From positions 1 to 64,000 of the IMG/VR virus record IMGVR_UViG_3300025405_000009: a DNA stretch of 64,000 nt; one strand, 5' to 3'. The translations under genes were made by a program, and so were the position numbers. This document shows, piece after piece, positions 1 to 8,696 of this stretch. How positions within the stretch are numbered: the first letter of the stretch is position 1; each line of letters starts with the position of its first letter. This DNA is from a virus. The notes under the pieces were generated by a model. The model was not told the origin of the DNA, searched no databases, and saw nothing but the letters and a program-made list of their open reading frames with translations.

Positions 1-13
1 TTATACTGAATGT

Positions 14-223
14 ATGAAAAATAAAGCAACCCTAAAGTCCGACGGCTGGTATATTATCTTTGTTAATGGTGAGGAGCAAGAGCTTCATCTAGCAGCTAAT
101 ACTAATCTTTTCATCTTCGATAAAGAGCATGATGGAGAGGGACATGTTGATATGTATCATTGTGAATCTGATGAATTTCAAGGCTCTATTTCACTTGAGC
201 CCGATCAGCTAATTCTTGCTTGA
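14..223 (+). CDS. hypothetical early protein (cassette)
   Basis: 69 aa, starts MKNK, preceded by -10 box TATACT; stop TGA overlaps next -35. Confidence 0.8.
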   Translation: MKNKATLKSDGWYIIFVNGEEQELHLAANTNLFIFDKEHDGEGHVDMYHCESDEFQGSISLEPDQLILA

Positions 224-254
224 AATTCCTTTTTGATTCCTTTATACTAATAGT

Positions 255-476
255 ATGAAAAATAAGATCGAAGATTGGTATCATAATACAAGCCGTCATG
301 ATAAGGTTGAGTACCTTAAGGAGACAACTGGAGCATGGTTTGATGAGCACTTCATTCACGAGCTGGTTACTTGGATAGGAGAGGATTCCTTCAATGAATT
401 CTTTAAGAATCAGCTAGTCCGTTATTGGGAGCTTAAGCCTGAGCCTGAGCTAATCGCTGAGATGATTGGAGAATAA
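255..476 (+). CDS. hypothetical early protein (cassette)
   Basis: 73 aa, MKNK start, promoter repeat upstream. Confidence 0.8.
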   Translation: MKNKIEDWYHNTSRHDKVEYLKETTGAWFDEHFIHELVTWIGEDSFNEFFKNQLVRYWELKPEPELIAEMIGE

Positions 477-513
477 GCTTGAAATCAAATAAGAATTCCA
501 ATATACTAATAGT

Positions 514-780
514 ATGAAAATTAACGGATACAAGAAAGAGTTCATGAAGGTTGTAACCTACCGCATTGAAGATGTTCCCGAAATAGGAACAGTTATGTAC
601 TCAGATTACTACGATGATAATGATAAGATTGTAGATTCAGTAATAAGAACAGAAGATGGACACCTTCTGTTCAGAACAGACGATGGATATGCGGGGCTTA
701 CAATAGAGGTACCATCAGTCCTAAAGGATATTCAGAACTTTATTGGTACAGAGTTTAATGCAGTTACAACATCGGTTTAA
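514..780 (+). CDS. hypothetical early protein (cassette)
   Basis: 88 aa, MKI start, promoter repeat upstream. Confidence 0.8.
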   Translation: MKINGYKKEFMKVVTYRIEDVPEIGTVMYSDYYDDNDKIVDSVIRTEDGHLLFRTDDGYAGLTIEVPSVLKDIQNFIGTEFNAVTTSV

Positions 781-821
781 GGCTTGCAGTTCAGACTATA
801 ACACTATAACATATAGACATA

Positions 822-1022
822 ATGAAAATCACAATCGATATTGATAACGGAGAGATTAGTTCAATCATTGATACGTTAAAGGATCAGGGAATTGATGTAA
901 CAATGTTCGATGTACAAGAGGCTTTAGAAGAGTACTTTCATGGAGTAATTGAGGACTTTGAAGAGTCTAGAATGGATACTGTTATTGATATGTTAATTGA
1001 TAGTGCTGATGTTCAGGAGTAG
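822..1022 (+). CDS. hypothetical acidic early protein (cassette)
   Basis: 66 aa, very D/E-rich, degenerate promoter copy upstream. Confidence 0.75.
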   Translation: MKITIDIDNGEISSIIDTLKDQGIDVTMFDVQEALEEYFHGVIEDFEESRMDTVIDMLIDSADVQE

Positions 1023-1026
1023 ATGA

Positions 1027-1045
1027 TCTATCTATCATAGATAGA
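1027..1045. terminator. Short hairpin between early gene and late gene
   Basis: TCTATCTA-tca-TAGATAGA 8-bp inverted repeat; no clear U-tract. Confidence 0.35.
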
Positions 1046-1083
1046 AGGACAAATAGATATCAATTTGAATAAGTATATTGGTA

Positions 1084-1548
1084 ATGCAAAATGATGCTCA
1101 TCTTATTTCCGAAACTTATGAACAGGTTATGATAAATGAAAGTATTGTTCCTTTTATTCCTTTAATTCTCAATCAACTCAATAACCTTCATACAACATAT
1201 AGTTCTTCTACAGGAGGTGGAACAGTTGATCCTAAAGAAGCTGTAGCTATTATTACTGCTTGTATTACTTTGATTACTCTTTCCTTAGGTGGATTTACAG
1301 CTGTATTTCTTGGAAAAGATATCGTGAATGCTATTAAAACGGCTCGTCATTGGATCCTTTCAAAGGTTACTTCTATTGATGTTAATGAGTTAGAGGAAGC
1401 AGCTAGTAAGGCAAAAGCTATTCTTAAAAATCCTTCTGAGAAGGGACAGATTACAACTTGGGTCAATAGGTTAAAAGCTGCATCTGATAAAAAAGATAGC
1501 GCTGGAATGCATAAAGCTTTTGAACACCTAACAGAACTAGTTAAGTAG
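1084..1548 (+). CDS. late protein with D-x-x-L-I-x-E-x-Y N-terminal motif and one TM segment
   Basis: ATG at 1084 (MQNDAHLISETY) after TAAGTA late-type box; hydrophobic stretch AVAIITACITLITLSLGGFTAVFLG. Confidence 0.7.
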   Translation: MQNDAHLISETYEQVMINESIVPFIPLILNQLNNLHTTYSSSTGGGTVDPKEAVAIITACITLITLSLGGFTAVFLGKDIVNAIKTARHWILSKVTSIDVNELEEAASKAKAILKNPSEKGQITTWVNRLKAASDKKDSAGMHKAFEHLTELVK

Positions 1549-1552
1549 AAGG

Positions 1553-1786
1553 TTAGGCCTCTTCCATACTAACAACCTTACCATTTAAGATCTGAAAGTA
1601 ATAAGGTTGTTTACCTGTCTCTATCTTAGTACTGTCAATGGATTGGGACAATTGGAGCTTTAAGGGTGTGTCATAAGGCCTATTGACTAGTATAGAATTA
1701 GAATCAACCTTAAGGACAACAAAAGGTCCTAGTGTATTATTAGTGATAGACTCTAGTATAGACTCAACTAAATGATTAAAAGACAT
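1553..1786 (-). CDS. hypothetical late protein
   Basis: 77 aa, TAAATA upstream on minus strand, N-terminus MSFNHLVESILES. Confidence 0.7.
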   Translation of the reverse strand: MSFNHLVESILESITNNTLGPFVVLKVDSNSILVNRPYDTPLKLQLSQSIDSTKIETGKQPYYFQILNGKVVSMEEA

Positions 1787-2221
1787 AGATAGATAGAAGT
1801 ATTTAAGATAAAAAACATATAGTCTAAAAGAAAAAAGTATATGAATTAAAAGAAAAGTACTATAGATAGGATGATCCTATAAGGAGTGATAGGTTATTAC
1901 TATAGTATAGATATATAGTTTTGAACAACGATTAGCCCCGTTTAGTTATTAAAAGCGGGCGGATTCTCCAGCCCCCCCATAGGCTATACTCACTCTACTA
2001 ATAGTCTAGAACTGTTAGAAATATAGAAATGAAAGGAAATAACTATACATGGGGTAGAATGATAGGAAGAACCTATCTATATAGAGAAAAGGTATGGAAT
2101 AGAAGGATGGGAATGTATAAACATAAGTCGATCCCAGCTCCCAAAGTTCCTAAACTGCAACATCTAGGCAAGAAACGGTTTTTTCTTGCATATTCCCCCG
2201 AATTCCTGTATAATCTCTTTA

Positions 2222-2437
2222 ATGAATAAGAAACCACCGAATTATTACGATTGCTTTATTGACTCCCTGCTTCAGCTTCCGCCGAAAGTCCGGAATGCTG
2301 TGCTTCGGGCAGCTAGTACCGTATCTACGGATGGTAACCCCTATCTTTATCTATGGAATTGTTACTCCGATATGGATAACGCTACGGGTAACTACATTAA
2401 AGAACTCTTTGATGAGTACAATCTAGCCCTAGACTAA
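2222..2437 (+). CDS. hypothetical early protein
   Basis: TTGCAT(2186)-17-TATAAT-7-ATG(2222); true start is probably MNKKPP, not the TTG at 2186. Confidence 0.7.
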   Translation: MNKKPPNYYDCFIDSLLQLPPKVRNAVLRAASTVSTDGNPYLYLWNCYSDMDNATGNYIKELFDEYNLALD

Positions 2438-2649
2438 CATATGAGAAAGTTTTTAACTAACCCATATAAGTTCTTCCTATATAAACTAGGATATGAACTA
2501 AGAGAAAACAGACCAATTTTTGACTACCTAACTCGATTTACTCATTCATCTTATTTCGAAGATAGGATGAATAATAATGACTTAGATCGGTTCGAATATC
2601 GTTTATTTTCTATATATTAGTATCTAGGTACTTCTGGAAGTATCAAGCT

Positions 2650-2678
2650 AAAAATTCGGAACCACTAACTCCTCCGAA
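2650..2678 (-). terminator. intrinsic terminator of putative ncRNA
   Basis: UUCGGAG-10 nt-UUCCGAA followed by UUUUU on minus strand. Confidence 0.6.
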
Positions 2679-2895
2679 AATGAAGTGAAGGGGGCTTGAA
2701 CTAAGATATGAGGATGACGTGAGTCAATCGGAGTACTCCCAGCTAACTAACATACATTCGTCTTACCGAACTAGCGAGCTGTTTTTAACCTGGACCCTGC
2801 TCAACGTCCCTTCTCTTATTATCCATTCATTATAGTGGCTCAGACTGGAACCTGCAATAGGAATCTGAATTACTTTCCCGAGGGATCAGAGGTCC
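2650..2895 (-). ncRNA. putative ~245-nt structured non-coding RNA
   Basis: Promoter TTGACG-17-TATAAT at 2930-2902 (minus), multiple nested helices with G-U pairs favouring the minus strand, no ORF, hairpin plus U5 at 2678-2650. Confidence 0.65.
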
Positions 2896-2901
2896 AGTCT
2901 T

Positions 2902-2930
2902 ATTATATGAAAAATCCCCGGGGACGTCAA
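2902..2930 (-). promoter_or_regulatory. sigma70 promoter divergent from the cassette array
   Basis: minus strand TTGACG-tccccggggatttttca-TATAAT. Confidence 0.85.
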
Positions 2931-2980
2931 GCTTAAAATTCAGGCTTGAAGTCCTTTATGAATTCCCTTATACTAATAGT

Positions 2981-3130
2981 ATGAAAAATAAGTACAACAT
3001 AACAAACGAAATCGAGCGCTTCAAAAAGTTCATGAATTGGTGTGAGGAGAACTTTGATAACCTTTCCGAGAAGGAACAAGACGAGATTTGTAACATTAAA
3101 AACGATCCAGACGAAATTTTTAACTGGTAA
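2981..3130 (+). CDS. hypothetical early protein, paralog of 4940..5107 (not in ORF track)
   Basis: 49 aa MKNKYNITNEIERFKKFMNWCEENFDNLSEKEQ...; promoter repeat upstream. Confidence 0.8.
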   Translation: MKNKYNITNEIERFKKFMNWCEENFDNLSEKEQDEICNIKNDPDEIFNW

Positions 3131-3159
3131 TTCCTTCCAAATTCCTTTATACTAATAGT

Positions 3160-3312
3160 ATGAAAATTGAAATACCTGATACAACGATCGAAGCCCTCAA
3201 AAATGCTCTTCAAAAAGAGCATAACATGGAAGTTAGTCAACAAGATCTTGAACGAAAGATTAACGACTTAATTTCTGATTGGGTTAGTGATCTAGAAGTC
3301 TGGGAAGATTAA
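3160..3312 (+). CDS. hypothetical early protein, paralog of 5145..5294 (not in ORF track)
   Basis: 50 aa MKIEIPDTTIEALKNALQKEHN... Confidence 0.8.
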   Translation: MKIEIPDTTIEALKNALQKEHNMEVSQQDLERKINDLISDWVSDLEVWED

Positions 3313-3349
3313 GCTTGAAGTTCCAACCAAATTCCAATATACTGAATAT

Positions 3350-3730
3350 ATGAAAAATAAGAACTATAAAGGTGTAGAAATTTATACAGGTTATAATGAG
3401 ATGTCTTTTTGTAATAAAGATGGAGACATTAGGACTTGGGTTAGTGATAAGAATGTTGGTGATTTAGGTAAACAAATTAGTAAAGAGTTAACTACTGAAT
3501 GTTATGAGTGGTTGTTAAAGGATGATGAAGAGATGACTAAAGAGACTGCTTTAGAGTATGCTAGTGAGTGGACTGATTATGTTAATGTAGTTAACGAGAA
3601 TGAAGTTTGTGTAGGTTTTAGTGAAGAGAGTATGTATTTTATTGTAAGTGAGGATAGTGAATGGTATAATAAATTGGATAAAGAAAGTGAAGAGTTAGCT
3701 GAGTACTTACAGGAGATTGATTTTGATTAA
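3350..3730 (+). CDS. hypothetical acidic early protein (cassette)
   Basis: 126 aa, MKNK start, promoter repeat. Confidence 0.8.
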   Translation: MKNKNYKGVEIYTGYNEMSFCNKDGDIRTWVSDKNVGDLGKQISKELTTECYEWLLKDDEEMTKETALEYASEWTDYVNVVNENEVCVGFSEESMYFIVSEDSEWYNKLDKESEELAEYLQEIDFD

Positions 3731-3767
3731 GCTTGAAGTTCCTTTCAAATTCCAATATACTAATAGT

Positions 3768-3950
3768 ATGAAAATAAAAGAACTAATCGAACATCTCAAC
3801 AAATTCAATCCTGAAGCTGACATCCATATGTGTGATGTGGAGTCAGAGGCTAAACTCGCTTTTTATGATATTGCTGAAGCTGAAGATGTAAAGAATACAG
3901 TTATGATTATTGTTGAGACTGATTACGATGATGAAGATGACGGAGATTAA
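3768..3950 (+). CDS. hypothetical early protein (cassette)
   Basis: Start moved to MKIKELIEHL (3768) because the upstream extension is the promoter repeat. Confidence 0.8.
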   Translation: MKIKELIEHLNKFNPEADIHMCDVESEAKLAFYDIAEAEDVKNTVMIIVETDYDDEDDGD

Positions 3951-3987
3951 GCTTGCAGTTCCAATCAAATTCTAATATACTAATAGT

Positions 3988-4203
3988 ATGAAAAATAAAG
4001 AACCACTAAACGAGAAAATCCAAAATCAAGTCACCTACCTTCCTATTCCTAAAGGAGTAGATATTGATGTAGTAGCTGAGATTATTGCTGACGATCAATA
4101 CGATCTCATCTTCCTGAAGGATGGTATATTGTGTAAGAATGATAGGGTTAAGGATGTAAAGGGAACTATTAGTGAGGCTCAAGAAGACTCTGACGAAGAA
4201 TAG
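3988..4203 (+). CDS. hypothetical early protein (cassette)
   Basis: 71 aa, MKNK start. Confidence 0.8.
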   Translation: MKNKEPLNEKIQNQVTYLPIPKGVDIDVVAEIIADDQYDLIFLKDGILCKNDRVKDVKGTISEAQEDSDEE

Positions 4204-4205
4204 AC

Positions 4206-4240
4206 TTGACATTTCCTTATAACCAAGCCATAATAATAGT
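4206..4240 (+). promoter_or_regulatory. Near-consensus sigma70 early promoter (representative copy)
   Basis: TTGACA-17 nt-CATAAT-6 nt-ATG(4241). Confidence 0.9.
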
Positions 4241-4447
4241 ATGAAAAATAAGAACAACGACCAGGAGATTAAGCACTACATTGAAGTTGATAGGTATGAA
4301 GGTACAGTTAGGATCTTGGATCTAACTAATGAAAATGAGGTAGAGAACCTTGAGTACTTCAAAGAGAATGGAGAGAAGTCTGTAGGAGAAGGTGGGTACA
4401 TTACTTGGGATGGTGAGGAGTCAATGATCATTCAAGTTCCTGCTTGA
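4241..4447 (+). CDS. hypothetical early protein (cassette)
   Basis: 68 aa, MKNKNN start. Confidence 0.8.
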   Translation: MKNKNNDQEIKHYIEVDRYEGTVRILDLTNENEVENLEYFKENGEKSVGEGGYITWDGEESMIIQVPA

Positions 4448-4516
4448 CCTTCCTTTAAAATTCAATCATAATAGAAGAGTAGAATAAGTCAACCAACAAC
4501 AACAACAAAAAACAAC

Positions 4517-4825
4517 ATGTCAACAGCAACTAAAACACCAACCGACGTTATCGACTATCTCGTAAGTTATTTCGAGACTTTTGGTAACCTTCCTACGCCA
4601 GTTATCGAATGTCAGGTATCAGGTACTGCCTATACTGCCTTTGGTACTAACCTCAAGAATAAGATTGAGAAGGCTGGAGGTATTAAGAATCTTCTTACGA
4701 CCTTCACTGGAAAGGGAGTAGTTAAGAAGAAGGAAGTTAAGTCTGAGACTAACATCGAAGCTCGACCTAAAAAGAAGACAGTTAAGGTCCAGAAGAAGGT
4801 AGTTAACGCCGATTGTCCTTTCTAA
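4517..4825 (+). CDS. basic protein, paralog of 6576..6899
   Basis: Shared core FGNLPTPVIECQVSGTAYTAFGTNLK.KIEKAGGIK.LLTTFTGKGVVKK; Lys-rich tail; leadered transcript. Confidence 0.85.
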   Translation: MSTATKTPTDVIDYLVSYFETFGNLPTPVIECQVSGTAYTAFGTNLKNKIEKAGGIKNLLTTFTGKGVVKKKEVKSETNIEARPKKKTVKVQKKVVNADCPF

Positions 4826-4847
4826 AAGAATAGCTCGGTAAAGGGAT

Positions 4848-4894
4848 AAGGAGGTGGAGGCGTTAATATGGGCCTTCACCTCTAAACCTTTTTT
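4848..4894 (+). terminator. intrinsic terminator
   Basis: GAGGTGGAGGC/GCCTTCACCTC 11-bp stem followed by taaacctttttt. Confidence 0.7.
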
Positions 4895-4939
4895 AAGAAT
4901 AGACTTGTAATTCCTTTCAAATTCCATTATCATAATAGT

Positions 4940-5107
4940 ATGAAAAATAAGAACACCGAAAAAGCCAAATACAACGTCGATACTGAGATTGAAAGGTTCG
5001 AGGACTTTATTAGTTGGGCTCAAGAGAACTTTGAAAAGCTCTCGAAAAAGAATCAATGTAAACTTGAAAACTTTTCTTACTCCGTTCAAGATACAGTCTC
5101 GTTTTAA
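4940..5107 (+). CDS. hypothetical early protein, paralog of 2981..3130 (not in ORF track)
   Basis: 55 aa, shares EIERF..F..W..ENF..LS.K.Q. Confidence 0.8.
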   Translation: MKNKNTEKAKYNVDTEIERFEDFISWAQENFEKLSKKNQCKLENFSYSVQDTVSF

Positions 5108-5144
5108 GCTTGAATGTTCCTTCTAATCCAGCCATAATAATAGT

Positions 5145-5294
5145 ATGAAAATTGAAATACCCGATACAACGATCCAAGCCCTCAAAAATGCTCTTCTTGA
5201 AGATCATAATAAGGAAGTTAATTTGACAGATCTTGAATACAAAATTAACGACCTAATTACTGAATGGGTAAGTGAGCTAGCTTGGCAAGATTAA
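5145..5294 (+). CDS. hypothetical early protein, paralog of 3160..3312 (not in ORF track)
   Basis: 49 aa MKIEIPDTTIQALKNALLEDHN... Confidence 0.8.
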   Translation: MKIEIPDTTIQALKNALLEDHNKEVNLTDLEYKINDLITEWVSELAWQD

Positions 5295-5331
5295 GCTTGA
5301 ACGTTCCTAATCATTCATTCATAATAATAGT

Positions 5332-5553
5332 ATGAAAAATAAGAACACCGAAACGATCGAACAATACGAAAACATTACTGGAGCTATCTACAAGAATCTA
5401 AAAGAGCTGAAGGAGTTGATGGCTACTAAAAATTACAAAAAGGCCCTGAAATGGGATCAGGAAGAGAATGATTGTGATAGTAATTTGCATGGTGAGTTTA
5501 GTTGCTTCATTCAAGATCTGACCGAGATTACTTACCTCATGGAGAAAGAATAA
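5332..5553 (+). CDS. hypothetical early protein (cassette)
   Basis: 73 aa, ends MEKE. Confidence 0.8.
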   Translation: MKNKNTETIEQYENITGAIYKNLKELKELMATKNYKKALKWDQEENDCDSNLHGEFSCFIQDLTEITYLMEKE

Positions 5554-5590
5554 GCTTGAAGTTCCTTCCAAATTCCTATATTATAAATTT

Positions 5591-5878
5591 ATGAAAAATA
5601 AAGTAACGTGTGGTGAAATGTCAGAATTAGTTGATGGTGCTTTGATAGATGTGAGTGATGATATTACACTTGATGATATGTATAGGATGTATGGAGATGA
5701 TTATAGTAAGGATATTATTGATATTTTATGGAAGGGTGTACTAAAGATTCGTGAAGGTGGTGGAATTGATAATCCTGATGAATATAAGATTTGTGATGAT
5801 GTTTACAATGAGTTAGAAGCTAAAGGCTTTGTTGAATGGCACCCTAGGGAAGCTCAAGCAGAAATGGAGAAAGAATAA
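5591..5878 (+). CDS. hypothetical early protein (cassette)
   Basis: 95 aa, ends MEKE. Confidence 0.8.
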   Translation: MKNKVTCGEMSELVDGALIDVSDDITLDDMYRMYGDDYSKDIIDILWKGVLKIREGGGIDNPDEYKICDDVYNELEAKGFVEWHPREAQAEMEKE

Positions 5879-5915
5879 GCTTGAAGTTCCTTCCAAATTC
5901 CCTTATACTAATAGT

Positions 5916-6128
5916 ATGAAAATTAAAACATCCAAAAAGCAAAAAGAACAATTCGCCCTTCTTATTAATGGAGAGCAATATGAAGTAGGGGATATTATGG
6001 AATGTCCTGTAGAAGGTAGTGAGGGTACGTTAGTTGGTATTGATGAGAATGAGTATCATTTTTATGCAGATGGAGAGGGATATTCACATCCTATTCCGGA
6101 TGATGTTGAGGTCATAAAATTGGCTTGA
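5916..6128 (+). CDS. hypothetical early protein (cassette)
   Basis: Start moved to MKIKTSKK (5916) directly after promoter repeat. Confidence 0.8.
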   Translation: MKIKTSKKQKEQFALLINGEQYEVGDIMECPVEGSEGTLVGIDENEYHFYADGEGYSHPIPDDVEVIKLA

Positions 6129-6159
6129 ACTTCCTTCTTAATTCCCTTATACTGATTGT

Positions 6160-6291
6160 ATGAAAATTAAGAAATGGACAGTCGAAATTAAAGAGGTCAA
6201 GGTTCGTCAACCCTTTGCCCCACTTACTAAGAAATTCAAGAACTTGAAAGCTTATAACAGAAAGCGGATGAAGCTTGCGTTCGCCGAATAG
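6160..6291 (+). CDS. small basic early protein (not in ORF track)
   Basis: 43 aa MKIKKWTVEIKEVKVRQPFAPLTKKFKNLKAYNRKRMKLAFAE; its 3' end encodes the next -35 box. Confidence 0.7.
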   Translation: MKIKKWTVEIKEVKVRQPFAPLTKKFKNLKAYNRKRMKLAFAE

Positions 6292-6309
6292 TTCCGTTAT
6301 ACTAATAGT

Positions 6310-6507
6310 ATGAAAAATATAAGAAAGCCGTTTACAGCCGGACAGGTTATGGACCAGATCATTGAATCTCTAACCGATCATGATGTAGGTTGGGTTAATG
6401 TTCATGAATCCAGTCCTGGATCTTCCCAGGCTGTAGTTAGTGTACAGTCCGTTCATGAAGAGATTTCCAATAAGAAATTCAGGATCATCGTTGTAGAAGA
6501 GGCTTGA
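6310..6507 (+). CDS. hypothetical early protein (cassette)
   Basis: 65 aa. Confidence 0.8.
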   Translation: MKNIRKPFTAGQVMDQIIESLTDHDVGWVNVHESSPGSSQAVVSVQSVHEEISNKKFRIIVVEEA

Positions 6508-6575
6508 AGTTCCAACGAATATTAATCATAATAGAAGAGTAGAATAAGTCAAACAACAACAAACACAAAACTAAA

Positions 6576-6899
6576 ATGAACAAAAACAACACGCCCGCTG
6601 AAGTGATCGAGTACCTAACTAACTATTACGAGACGTTCGGAAATCTCCCGACTCCTGTAATTGAGTGCCAAGTGAGTGGAACGGCGTATACGGCGTTCGG
6701 AACTAACTTGAAGGGTAAGATTGAGAAAGCGGGTGGAATTAAGGAGCTCCTTACTACCTTTACAGGTAAGGGAGTAGTGAAGAAGGCAGATGTTAAGAAG
6801 GAGGTAACGGCTACGATTACCCCTCGAAAGAAGACCACTAAGAAGGTCATTCACATCTCAGCTAACGACCTGGAAAAGAATCGAGTTAGTCTAGCCTAA
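6576..6899 (+). CDS. basic protein, paralog of 4517..4825
   Basis: See 4517; same upstream 29-nt block aatcataatagaagagtagaataagtcaa and CAA-rich leader. Confidence 0.85.
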   Translation: MNKNNTPAEVIEYLTNYYETFGNLPTPVIECQVSGTAYTAFGTNLKGKIEKAGGIKELLTTFTGKGVVKKADVKKEVTATITPRKKTTKKVIHISANDLEKNRVSLA

Positions 6900-6912
6900 C
6901 TCAATCAATTTT

Positions 6913-7010
6913 AGTCAAGAGCACATCTCTAGGTGAAGGATTAGGTAAGGCGGTCGGAAACGATCAAACCTCTAGCAACCTTAATAAACTAGGTAGGATG
7001 GCTCTTGACT
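6913..7010 (+). other. ~100-nt extended RNA hairpin in 3' UTR
   Basis: AGTCAAGAGC/GCTCTTGACT closing stem, inner helices CATC/GATG, ATTAGGT/ACCTTAAT, apical GTCG-GAAA-CGAT. Confidence 0.6.
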
Positions 7011-7056
7011 GAATAATTTTCTTGAAGTTCGAATTGAATTCCGTTATACTGATCGT

Positions 7057-7320
7057 ATGAAAAATAAGAACAACGAAGCAGTAACGACAATCGAATTCAA
7101 GCGCAGCCGTCATGGTGATCCCTTCGATCGCGGTTCAATGGATAGCTACTATCGCCGTAGCCGGAATCCTCATTACTTTGTCGGTGGTACTGGATGCAGT
7201 CCTCGTATTGAAGAGGCCCAGATGACCGAGCTTGAGGTGTTGGCCTATCATGCAGGGTTTGATTCGAACGAGAGGGAGGGAGACTATAAGGATTATGGAT
7301 GGGGGAATGGGCGGTATTAA
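7057..7320 (+). CDS. conserved phage hypothetical protein (RHG.PFDRGS.DSYY.R motif)
   Basis: 87 aa; motif recalled from other T4-like phage hypotheticals. Confidence 0.8.
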   Translation: MKNKNNEAVTTIEFKRSRHGDPFDRGSMDSYYRRSRNPHYFVGGTGCSPRIEEAQMTELEVLAYHAGFDSNEREGDYKDYGWGNGRY

Positions 7321-7358
7321 GCCTTGAACTTCCAACCAGAATCCCTTATACTGATCGT

Positions 7359-7619
7359 ATGAAAAATAAGAACAACGTCGGAGCACTGAAGTGGGGCAAG
7401 AAGGTCATGATCGAGAGCGGAAGCTCGGCCTGGTATGATCACTCTTATTATAGTGTGCCTTTTGTTGGCACTCTTGACGTTAGTAAGATGCGATCGGCTC
7501 TGTCAAAGAGGTATCCTAACACCGGTAATTACTTCGGAGGGTATACCACGGTTGGTGACATTTCACTTCTTAATGATGGGCATGTTAAGGTAGAGCTCAT
7601 TCACCATATAGGGAATTGA
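7359..7619 (+). CDS. hypothetical early protein (cassette)
   Basis: Start moved to MKNKNNVG (7359). Confidence 0.8.
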   Translation: MKNKNNVGALKWGKKVMIESGSSAWYDHSYYSVPFVGTLDVSKMRSALSKRYPNTGNYFGGYTTVGDISLLNDGHVKVELIHHIGN

Positions 7620-7657
7620 TGCTTGTACTTCCAACTAGAATCCCTTATACTAATAGT

Positions 7658-7771
7658 ATGAAAATTAAAGAAATCGATTCACTAGTCGTCTTGATAGCTG
7701 TCCTATCCGTTATTGGTCTTACCTGTATCAGTCTTCTTGTCTATCTTGGCATTTACATTTACAACTATTAA
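7658..7771 (+). CDS. single-TM microprotein (not in ORF track)
   Basis: 37 aa MKIKEIDSLVVLIAVLSVIGLTCISLLVYLGIYIYNY with promoter repeat. Confidence 0.7.
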   Translation: MKIKEIDSLVVLIAVLSVIGLTCISLLVYLGIYIYNY

Positions 7772-7809
7772 GCCTTGAAGTTCCAATCAAAGTCCATTAT
7801 ACTGATAGT

Positions 7810-8067
7810 ATGAAAAATAAGAACAACGGAAAGAACACAAAAGTCGAAACCCTCAAAGAGCGCTATAAGGTCGGAGACGTCCTGAAGGTGATTGAGTCCT
7901 TTCAAGACGGAAGAGGCGGGACGGATAACATCACTCACTACATTACTATAACGAAAGTGAATAGGGTGACGGTAGAGGGTACCGAAGGTAAGGGTGGTGA
8001 GGTGATCTTAGATCTTCAGGATCTCTTCCACGCAAAGAAAGTCATTCAGAGGGAGATCCTTGCTTGA
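7810..8067 (+). CDS. hypothetical early protein (cassette)
   Basis: 85 aa. Confidence 0.8.
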   Translation: MKNKNNGKNTKVETLKERYKVGDVLKVIESFQDGRGGTDNITHYITITKVNRVTVEGTEGKGGEVILDLQDLFHAKKVIQREILA

Positions 8068-8098
8068 ACTTCCAATCAAATTCCCTTATACTAATAGT

Positions 8099-8338
8099 AT
8101 GAAAAATAAAGACAACGTAACAGTAAAGCAATTGACAGATAAGCTCACCGAACTATGTGCAGCTAAGTATCCTAATGATCGTTCGATGAAATGGGCTTAC
8201 GTTTGTGGAGTGTTAGAGGCGATGTTAGATTGGGAGGTTAAGGGATATGATAAGGGTATCAAGACTCTCCAAGAGAGAGTTAATGAGGCTTTTGAGAGGT
8301 ATGAAGAGGAGTTAGAGGCTGAATTAACAATTGCATAA
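8099..8338 (+). CDS. hypothetical early protein (cassette)
   Basis: Start moved to MKNKDNVT (8099). Confidence 0.8.
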   Translation: MKNKDNVTVKQLTDKLTELCAAKYPNDRSMKWAYVCGVLEAMLDWEVKGYDKGIKTLQERVNEAFERYEEELEAELTIA

Positions 8339-8366
8339 TTAAACAAATTCCATTACAATAATAACA

Positions 8367-8696
8367 ATGAATACGAAACTAATAATCGGAGCTATAATTG
8401 GACTCCTCTTTGTAAGCTCCATCAATTCTGCCCACGCCTATTATGGTGGTTATGGATATGGAGGTGGGTATTATAGGGGTGCTGGAGCTTGTGGATATGG
8501 ATATGGTGGATATGGTTATGGTGGTGGATATGGATATGGTTATGGAGGTGGATGGGGTAATGTTGGGACGTTGTTGGGTGTAGCAGCCATTGTTAGTGCC
8601 GCAACTCCTATTGTTACAACTGCCATTCAACAACCAGTTTACGTCCAACCCCAACAACAACAACAACCAGTAGTCTACATCATCAATTCTAAGTAA
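8367..8696 (+). CDS. Gly/Tyr-rich exported protein
   Basis: Signal peptide ending AHA, GYG repeats, hydrophobic segment, poly-Q tail. Confidence 0.75.
   Translation: MNTKLIIGAIIGLLFVSSINSAHAYYGGYGYGGGYYRGAGACGYGYGGYGYGGGYGYGYGGGWGNVGTLLGVAAIVSAATPIVTTAIQQPVYVQPQQQQQPVVYIINSK

Follow-up and report, generated by a model that had tools for sequence, protein, structure and literature searches.

A putative early small RNA gene with covarying hairpins in uncultivated freshwater T4-like phages

The minus strand of the window, by which we mean the whole 64,000-nt stretch of DNA that was analysed, probably carries at 2822–2650 a genuine, independently transcribed early gene for a small non-coding RNA, which would act in trans in a clade of uncultivated freshwater T4-like phages. 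As judged from sequence, the RNA belongs to a previously undescribed family of the phage-encoded small RNA kind, and it has the features of a structured non-coding RNA gene in general, namely base pairs with statistically supported covariation, a conserved promoter and the lack of any conserved open reading frame (ORF). The original prediction of an unannotated gene for a structured non-coding RNA, on the minus strand and divergent from an array of gene cassettes, is borne out by the covariation, by a conserved promoter of early type and by the absence of the RNA from Rfam. To our knowledge, no structured non-coding RNA has been described from the early regions of lytic T4-type phages, and only a handful are known from these phages as a whole. 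The comparative signature is clean: across about two dozen lineages of an abundant clade of uncultivated freshwater phages, the promoter and the loops are fixed and the stems covary. The RNA is a solid candidate for experimental study, and corrected boundaries together with a covariance model make it directly testable and searchable.

Results

The RNA gene lies in a gap within an array of predicted early cassettes

The window comprises bases 1–64000 of a 198,847-bp virus record with 35% G+C, from an uncultivated T4-like phage. Among its products are a major head protein, a portal protein, and sheath and baseplate wedge proteins, all of T4 type. Its head protein is at most ~32% identical to that of any cultured phage, the best matches being cyanomyoviruses, and 68–87% identical to the head proteins of many uncultivated viral contigs. 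On the plus strand of positions 1–8400, about 21 copies of a ~50-nt element that joins a promoter to an ATG (GCTTGAAGTTCC ... TATACT AATAGT ATGAAAAAT) precede small genes. The A of the ATG in these cassettes lies 7 nt past the −10 hexamer, at the expected transcription start, and the early mRNAs are predicted to be leaderless, with one gene each. The RNA gene occupies a 360-bp ORF-free gap within this array, and its promoter has the class and the start register common to the neighbouring cassettes. It would in effect be an 'RNA cassette', and an early array of single-gene leaderless cassettes could thus also hold a cassette that yields RNA only. The 17 tRNA genes of the source genome are distant from it, at 140–170 kb.

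Homologues are found in related viral and metagenome contigs

An exact search with a 22-mer led to one viral contig, and BLAST among relatives to a second. With a variable-gap pattern that required the two words CGTTGAGCAGGG and AACAGCTCG, five viral loci and about 40 genuine loci in low-G+C metagenome DNA were retrieved, and chance matches in high-G+C DNA were set aside. A second pattern, in which the loop of hairpin H1 (Table 1) was not specified, added two further sequences (L217 and L218), and two further anchor patterns returned known members or false matches only. After removal of duplicates, 24 distinct sequences from viral and metagenome contigs, many of them from bog-lake samples (Trout Bog-type sites), were aligned (alignments A1 and A3). 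The invariance of CGUUGAGCAGGG and AACAGCUCG among them is partly due to ascertainment, since the search pattern demanded both. Viral contigs searched through the neighbouring protein encoded at 2222–2437 yielded no more family members, and none was found in five more distant relatives.

A covariance model built from the family (R1) detected a single copy in the source genome and found the RNA in 4 of 50 related virus records. It gave no match, at E up to 0.01, in two relatives rated 100% complete. The RNA is confined to a subclade, and it is not essential to the wider clade because these two complete relatives do without it. No match was found in cultured phages by blastn, or in 185,579 bacterial and archaeal species genomes with a pattern specifying 28 nt. 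Rfam 15 gave no match at the gathering threshold in the 64-kb window and none in the RNA region at E up to 10, as anticipated of an RNA outside the known families, and no match recurred across eight homologue loci.

The region is non-coding, again as predicted. There is no ORF of at least 60 aa in 2650–2930, where the sole ORFs are mechanical ones on the plus strand, of 38 and 33 aa, and no ORF is conserved on either strand across the homologues, several of which lack any ORF of at least 18 codons. Start codons are missing from several homologues, and the reading frames shift between them because indels in the linker are of 1–2 nt and not multiples of three. The tiny ORFs that can be drawn (a frame beginning MDNK, a frame starting at TTG and the plus-strand ORF of 38 aa) were rejected, as they are not conserved among the homologues.

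A conserved promoter places the predicted RNA start near 2822

A sigma-70-type TTGnnn-17-TAnAAT promoter is present in all 24 homologues (with a 16-nt spacer in one) and ends 22–23 nt before the H1-loop anchor; its hexamers and their spacing are kept, and the spacer sequences diverge freely. The seventh base past the −10, A2822, is in the register of the A of the cassette ATG. Because the promoter stands at a fixed distance and the register is that of the cassette starts, we place the RNA start near 2822. The original prediction had put +1 near 2895 and the length at ~245 nt; the conserved start is ~73 nt further in and gives ~173 nt, and the segment 2895–2840, earlier read as a 5′ domain of the RNA, is promoter and intergenic DNA in all homologues.

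The strong promoter first proposed for the gene, P1, does exist in the window and is the best minus-strand promoter match within the first 9 kb, but none of the 23 homologues has a promoter scoring at least 10/12 in the same place. Read on the plus strand, its −10 coincides with the start region of a stub cassette, and from this P1 appears to be an accidental or recent reverse complement of that region. It could fire, and would then add a 5′-extended isoform of ~246 nt in the source phage.

At the other end, the 3′ boundary at 2650 assumes that the hairpin and U5 tract of the window terminate transcription. This terminator is present as originally described, but it is not conserved: it occurs in the window and a few relatives only, and in L100, L166, L096, L083 and other homologues the stem or the U run is missing. 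The RNA probably ends before or near the next promoter-like element, P2, which corresponds to about 150–205 nt from +1. A 3′ domain for Rho utilisation (C-rich and G-poor) was considered and rejected, as base counts had no consistent skew.

An element of the type GCTTG... stands at the position of P2 in most homologues. P2 points into the stop codon of the conserved 59-aa gene, and would yield a transcript antisense to the 3′ end of that gene.

Table 1. Coordinates of the RNA gene, its predicted structural elements and adjoining features in the window.
Feature	Position	Strand	Description
Convergent 59-aa gene	2441–2620	+	Stop overlaps P2; homologues found by tblastn
Promoter-like P2	2619–2646	−	TTGATA-16-GATACT; just past the RNA and directed toward the convergent gene's 3′ end
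Predicted RNA	2650–2822	−	~173 nt; +1 (A, ~2822) placed from the −10 position
Possible weak terminator	2650–2678	−	UUCGGA/UCCGAA hairpin and U5; competes with H5
Hairpin H5	2671–2694	−	CCCCC/GGAGG, one mismatch in the window; loop UUCACUUCAUUUUC
Conserved core	2690–2828	−	Covariance-model match (137.7 bits, E 3e-35), the only one in the 199-kb genome
Hairpin H3	2716–2729	−	Variable stem; conserved loop motif ACUMAC (2724–2719)
Hairpin H2 apex	2757–2770	−	UUCG (2770–2767), loop GUAAGA (2766–2761), CGAA (2760–2757)
Candidate H-type pseudoknot	2776–2802	−	Loop GAGC (2802–2799) with GCUC (2779–2776), across the A-rich linker
Hairpin H1	2792–2809	−	GGAC (2809–2806) with GUCC (2795–2792); 10-nt loop GUUGAGCAGG (2805–2796)
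Conserved RNA promoter	2829–2857	−	−35 TTGCAG (2857–2852), 17-nt spacer, −10 TATAAT (2834–2829)
Upstream promoter-like P1	2902–2930	−	TTGACG-17-TATAAT, score 11/12; source genome only
Stub cassette	2907–2936	+	Nine-codon leaderless remnant, ATG AAA AAT ... TAA; −35 decayed to CCGAGG

Two hairpins are supported by covariation

Folding of the single sequence is not significant. On the minus strand, 13 of 200 shuffles fold as stably as 2650–2895 (246 nt; z = −1.56), and 2650–2822 (173 nt) has z = −1.66; the corresponding plus-strand values are +1.47 and −0.56. The earlier expectation that the 246-nt RNA would fold better than shuffled controls thus fails. The covariation expected among homologues is found: in alignment A3, 85.6% of cells are paired, compared to 70.7% in shuffles, and the covariation score of 0.404 (0.113 in shuffles) was reached by 0 of 500 shuffled alignments, with slid controls at or below 0.135. 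Helices H1 and the apex of H2, the two that covary, are supported both by RNAalifold and by explicit pair counts.

In H1, four of the five pairs have changes on both sides, and the central pair is UA in 12 sequences, AU in 8, CG in 3 and GC in 1. Its loop is near-invariant, with only GAUGAG and GUAGAG as variants when the search pattern left the loop free. The word GGGUCC (2797–2792), earlier assigned to a pseudoknot with an upstream GGACCU, is the 3′ strand of this local hairpin, and pair counts across the family led us to reject that pseudoknot.

The apex of H2 corresponds to a UUCG/CGAA arm already seen in the window sequence, and this arm is real, being 100% paired in the 24 sequences, with all four pairs covarying through 3–4 pair types each. 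One of its pairs is G-U in 12 of the 24 sequences and would be a C-A mismatch on the opposite strand. As these G-U pairs fit only the minus strand, that is the functional RNA strand, in agreement with the original reading of the G-U pairs. Of the adjoining CAGCU/AGCUG arm, the inner three pairs are kept, but the remaining pairs are lost across homologues. H2 occurs in two unrelated versions, AUAGU..AUGUAU and AAGAG..UGCUAC (columns ~57–82 of A1/A3, 2774–2751 in the window). Either version, type A or type B, can be found in otherwise similar RNAs, for example L194 and L163, which suggests from the alignments that H2 matters as a shape and not as a sequence. The versions are also mixed with either type of 3′ domain (L194 and L163 compared to the window, for instance), a pattern that suggests recombination within the RNA gene. 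For the closing stem of H2 three options were compared, AACAGC/GUUnGUU, GCU/AGC plus CG/CG, and the candidate pseudoknot of Table 1, and all are invariant across the alignment.

H3 is paired in 64% of cells, and four of its pairs have double changes. H5 is found only in the subset that shares the 3′ domain of the window, where its stem varies as CCUCC/GGAGG, CCUCU/AGAGG, CCCU/AGGG and CCCUCCU/AGGAGGG; owing to alignment shifts these variants were read by eye and not formally counted. Two elements drawn earlier from the window alone do not survive alignment. A long irregular stem proves to be the minimum-energy fold of one sequence: its pairs 22–116, 23–115 and 27–112 occur in 9, 7 and 10 of 22 sequences, respectively, its outer helix is 41% paired, and its bases are those of the H1 stem and loop and the H3 loop. 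In place of the GGAGUACUCC palindrome, half of the family has a C-rich stretch.

Conserved unpaired sequence totals more than 40 nt. The nearly fixed segments are the H1 loop, the A-rich linker with CAGCUCG, the word GUUnGUUAGC and the ACUMAC loop. The candidate GAGC/GCUC pseudoknot is pairable in 24 of 24 sequences with both sides invariant and was chosen by RNAalifold on a 10-sequence subset; it cannot form together with the other closing stems considered for H2. Complementarity (GUUGAG with CUMAC) makes the loops of H1 and H3 always pairable; kissing between them was left unsupported, as the sole loop variants, L217 and L218, weaken the pairing without compensation. Pairing of the words GUUAG and CUMAC was likewise rejected, their A/C variation being uncompensated in our own reading of the alignments. 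The pentamers CTMAC/GTKAG occur 1–6 times per 175 nt, compared to ~0.6 times in shuffles.

The flanking genes differ between loci

Upstream, where the window has only the stub cassette, homologues carry a full divergent leaderless early gene, marked by the reverse complement of ATGAAAAATAAG ~55–60 nt upstream of the −35 of the RNA, and this gene varies from locus to locus. Downstream, homologues of the convergent genes 2186–2437 and 2441–2620 are found in about half of the loci. In tblastn searches, homologues of the 59-aa gene adjoined the RNA in six loci, with one more located elsewhere in its locus, and those of the 2186–2437 gene were found in 11 loci; the neighbouring proteins had no Pfam or PHROG match. 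In the other loci the RNA gene is followed by convergent tRNA genes or by co-directional small genes behind their own promoter. Opposite-strand tRNA genes converge on it in L090, L098 and L133 (with Rfam tRNA matches in L098 and L133). Such varied surroundings indicate that the RNA moves together with its promoter, as one self-contained unit.

In several relatives, tandem short purine-rich units, AAAAAAAC-N-GTG or GAGAGAAA(A/C), lie between the RNA gene and the next genes (L090, ~5060–5150; L098, L133, L092, L218 and L201, ~250–480 nt past the RNA start).

Comparison with known RNAs

Like the small RNAs of phages, such as the prophage RNAs DicF and IpeX and those in transcriptomes of lytic phages, the new RNA is short, promoter-driven and non-coding, with hairpins and conserved unpaired segments, and its targets would presumably be factors of the host or the phage. 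It differs from them in having no sequence or Rfam relationship and no conserved Rho-independent terminator, and in keeping more than 40 nt of unpaired sequence in place of one short seed. The conserved GC-rich 3′ hairpin with a U tract by which Rho-independently terminated (Hfq-type) small RNAs are recognised is absent from the family.

The T4 RNAs rnaC and rnaD (species 1 and 2 RNA) are also small stable RNAs without an assigned function in a T4-type phage, and are located beside tRNA genes, which the new RNA likewise adjoins in three homologue loci. The T4 record, however, places both immediately next to the tRNA genes and on their strand, whereas the new RNA gene is oriented toward the tRNA genes and is equipped with a promoter of its own. 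The covariance model had no match to either of them (cmsearch with filters off, T4 66–76 kb), the best score, 9.6 bits, lying elsewhere.

With 6S RNA the new RNA has in common a similar size range, and it would arise while host polymerase is being redirected. There is no match to RF00013, and 6S RNA is a long rod with a central bubble, whereas the consensus here comprises the short local hairpins H1, H2 and H3; the 6S-like decoy suggested earlier finds no backing in either comparison.

The possible 4–5-bp stem with a 10-nt loop pairing past an A-rich stretch is reminiscent of preQ1-I and other H-type pseudoknot aptamers. RF00522 gave no match, no queuosine gene has the RNA in its 5′ UTR, and the gene downstream is convergent or unrelated. 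The ligand-reading residue before the 3′ strand of the stem in preQ1-I is a C, and the new RNA has AGG there. The source phage does carry QueF, more than 23 kb from the RNA. A link to preQ1 or 7-deazaguanine genes was rejected, QueF being present in relatives with and without the RNA.

Finally, phi29 pRNA is phage-encoded and ~120–170 nt long and is made from an early promoter, as the new RNA would be, and the complementarity of the H1 and H3 loops recalls its kissing loops. No match to RF00044 was found, and the covarying intermolecular loop–loop pairs of phi29-type pRNA have no counterpart in the uncompensated L217 and L218 variants; T4-type packaging is not known to need an RNA. Of the functions first suggested, a 6S-like decoy, a ribozyme, a defence-protein sponge and a recombination guide, these comparisons bear on the first two, and the RNA region had no Rfam ribozyme match.

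Discussion

Four alternatives to an RNA acting in trans have to be weighed, and by decreasing weight they are antisense action or interference, a DNA-level origin, a cis-acting leader or aptamer, and a decayed cassette.

The first, which we regard as unlikely, is cis-antisense action or transcription interference. The RNA, or read-through from its promoter and P2, would oppose the convergent unit (the 2186–2620 genes here, tRNA clusters elsewhere), and a duplex with the 3′ end of that unit, or collision of polymerases, would set the timing of its expression or cut it back. Downstream of the RNA, the nearest gene is indeed convergent in most loci, P2 is aimed straight into the stop codon of the 2441–2620 gene, and the terminator between the RNA and the convergent gene is weak or absent. 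On the other hand, there is no overlap between the conserved core and the convergent ORF, the partner that converges on the RNA changes between loci while the core stays constant, and in some loci the downstream genes are co-directional; moreover, simple antisense action has no need of covarying hairpins and fixed loops.

An element acting as DNA, a replication origin in which the early-promoter transcript primes synthesis and the GTTAG/CTAAC repeats are protein-binding iterons, seems to us distinctly improbable. It would resemble T4 oriE and oriF, where an early-promoter transcript primes synthesis, and a strong early promoter does point here into non-coding DNA at a strand-switch point. CTMAC/GTKAG is enriched several-fold, two CTMAC copies are 11 nt apart, and the A/C variation of the pentamer is uncompensated in any candidate RNA helix. 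Against an origin, the compensatory changes and G-U pairs reveal that selection has acted on one strand, of defined polarity and in folded form, and priming by an R-loop requires no such thing; no gene for an origin protein and no AT-rich unwinding element was identified.

Third in weight, and with very little probability in our estimate, comes a cis-acting leader, riboswitch-like or put-like, in which read-through into downstream DNA would be controlled by the H1 pseudoknot and its A-rich loop, through sensing of a ligand or modification of the transcribing polymerase. The possible H-type pseudoknot (a 4–5-bp stem, a 10-nt loop and an A-rich third loop of 11–15 nt) has an architecture that resembles preQ1-I-type aptamers, the RNA follows directly behind its promoter, and co-directional genes lie downstream in some loci. 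Yet nothing co-directional follows in about half of the loci, and the downstream genes, where present, have their own promoter P2. The pseudoknot lacks covariation support, no riboswitch in Rfam matches even at E up to 10, and QueF occurs whether or not a relative has the RNA.

That the locus is a decayed protein cassette or a tiny peptide gene without a function at the RNA level is highly improbable: its 5′ end resembles a cassette start with the ATG changed to ATA or ACA, a decayed stub adjoins at 2907–2936 and some homologues have an ATG frame of 13–28 codons (MDNK...), but this ATG precedes the predicted +1 and several homologues lack it, indels of 1–2 nt break the frames so that none is conserved, and a decaying cassette would not retain, in 24 lineages, ~115 nt of core with compensatory pairs and a mean column identity of 73%.

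The reading we prefer is that of a small RNA acting in trans. As its promoter is of the early class of the phage, the RNA is probably made by host RNA polymerase straight after infection, with initiation at an A in the register of the leaderless ATG. It would then present fixed single-stranded or tertiary surfaces to a partner, as suggested by stems that drift with compensation, H2 versions that interchange and unpaired stretches that stay fixed. Our best guess is that it binds a host protein as a decoy, or a host RNA by base pairing, during takeover; were the fixed loops to bind such a host factor, the phage would have in this RNA a new RNA-based means of taking over the host or of countering its defences.

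A more specific version, which we hold to be doubtful, is that the H1 stem, the fixed 10-nt loop, the A-rich linker and GCUC form an H-type pseudoknot that specifically binds a small ligand or a protein of the host, such as a factor in defence or translation. Were this so, the RNA would define a new class, early phage 'aptamer RNA', whose task is to sense a component of the host or to neutralise it, and it could be tied to the leaderless gene expression of this phage, which does without Shine–Dalgarno sequences.

For an RNA acting in trans by base pairing, GUUGAGCAGG, AAAACAGCUCG and ACUMAC may be the segments directed toward host transcripts. The genome of the phage itself has no target complementary to six conserved segments at two or fewer mismatches. 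The H1 loop sequence GUUGAGC (2805–2799, minus strand) is complementary to GCUCAAC, a conserved word of 16S rRNA; the match is a 7-mer and probably due to chance.
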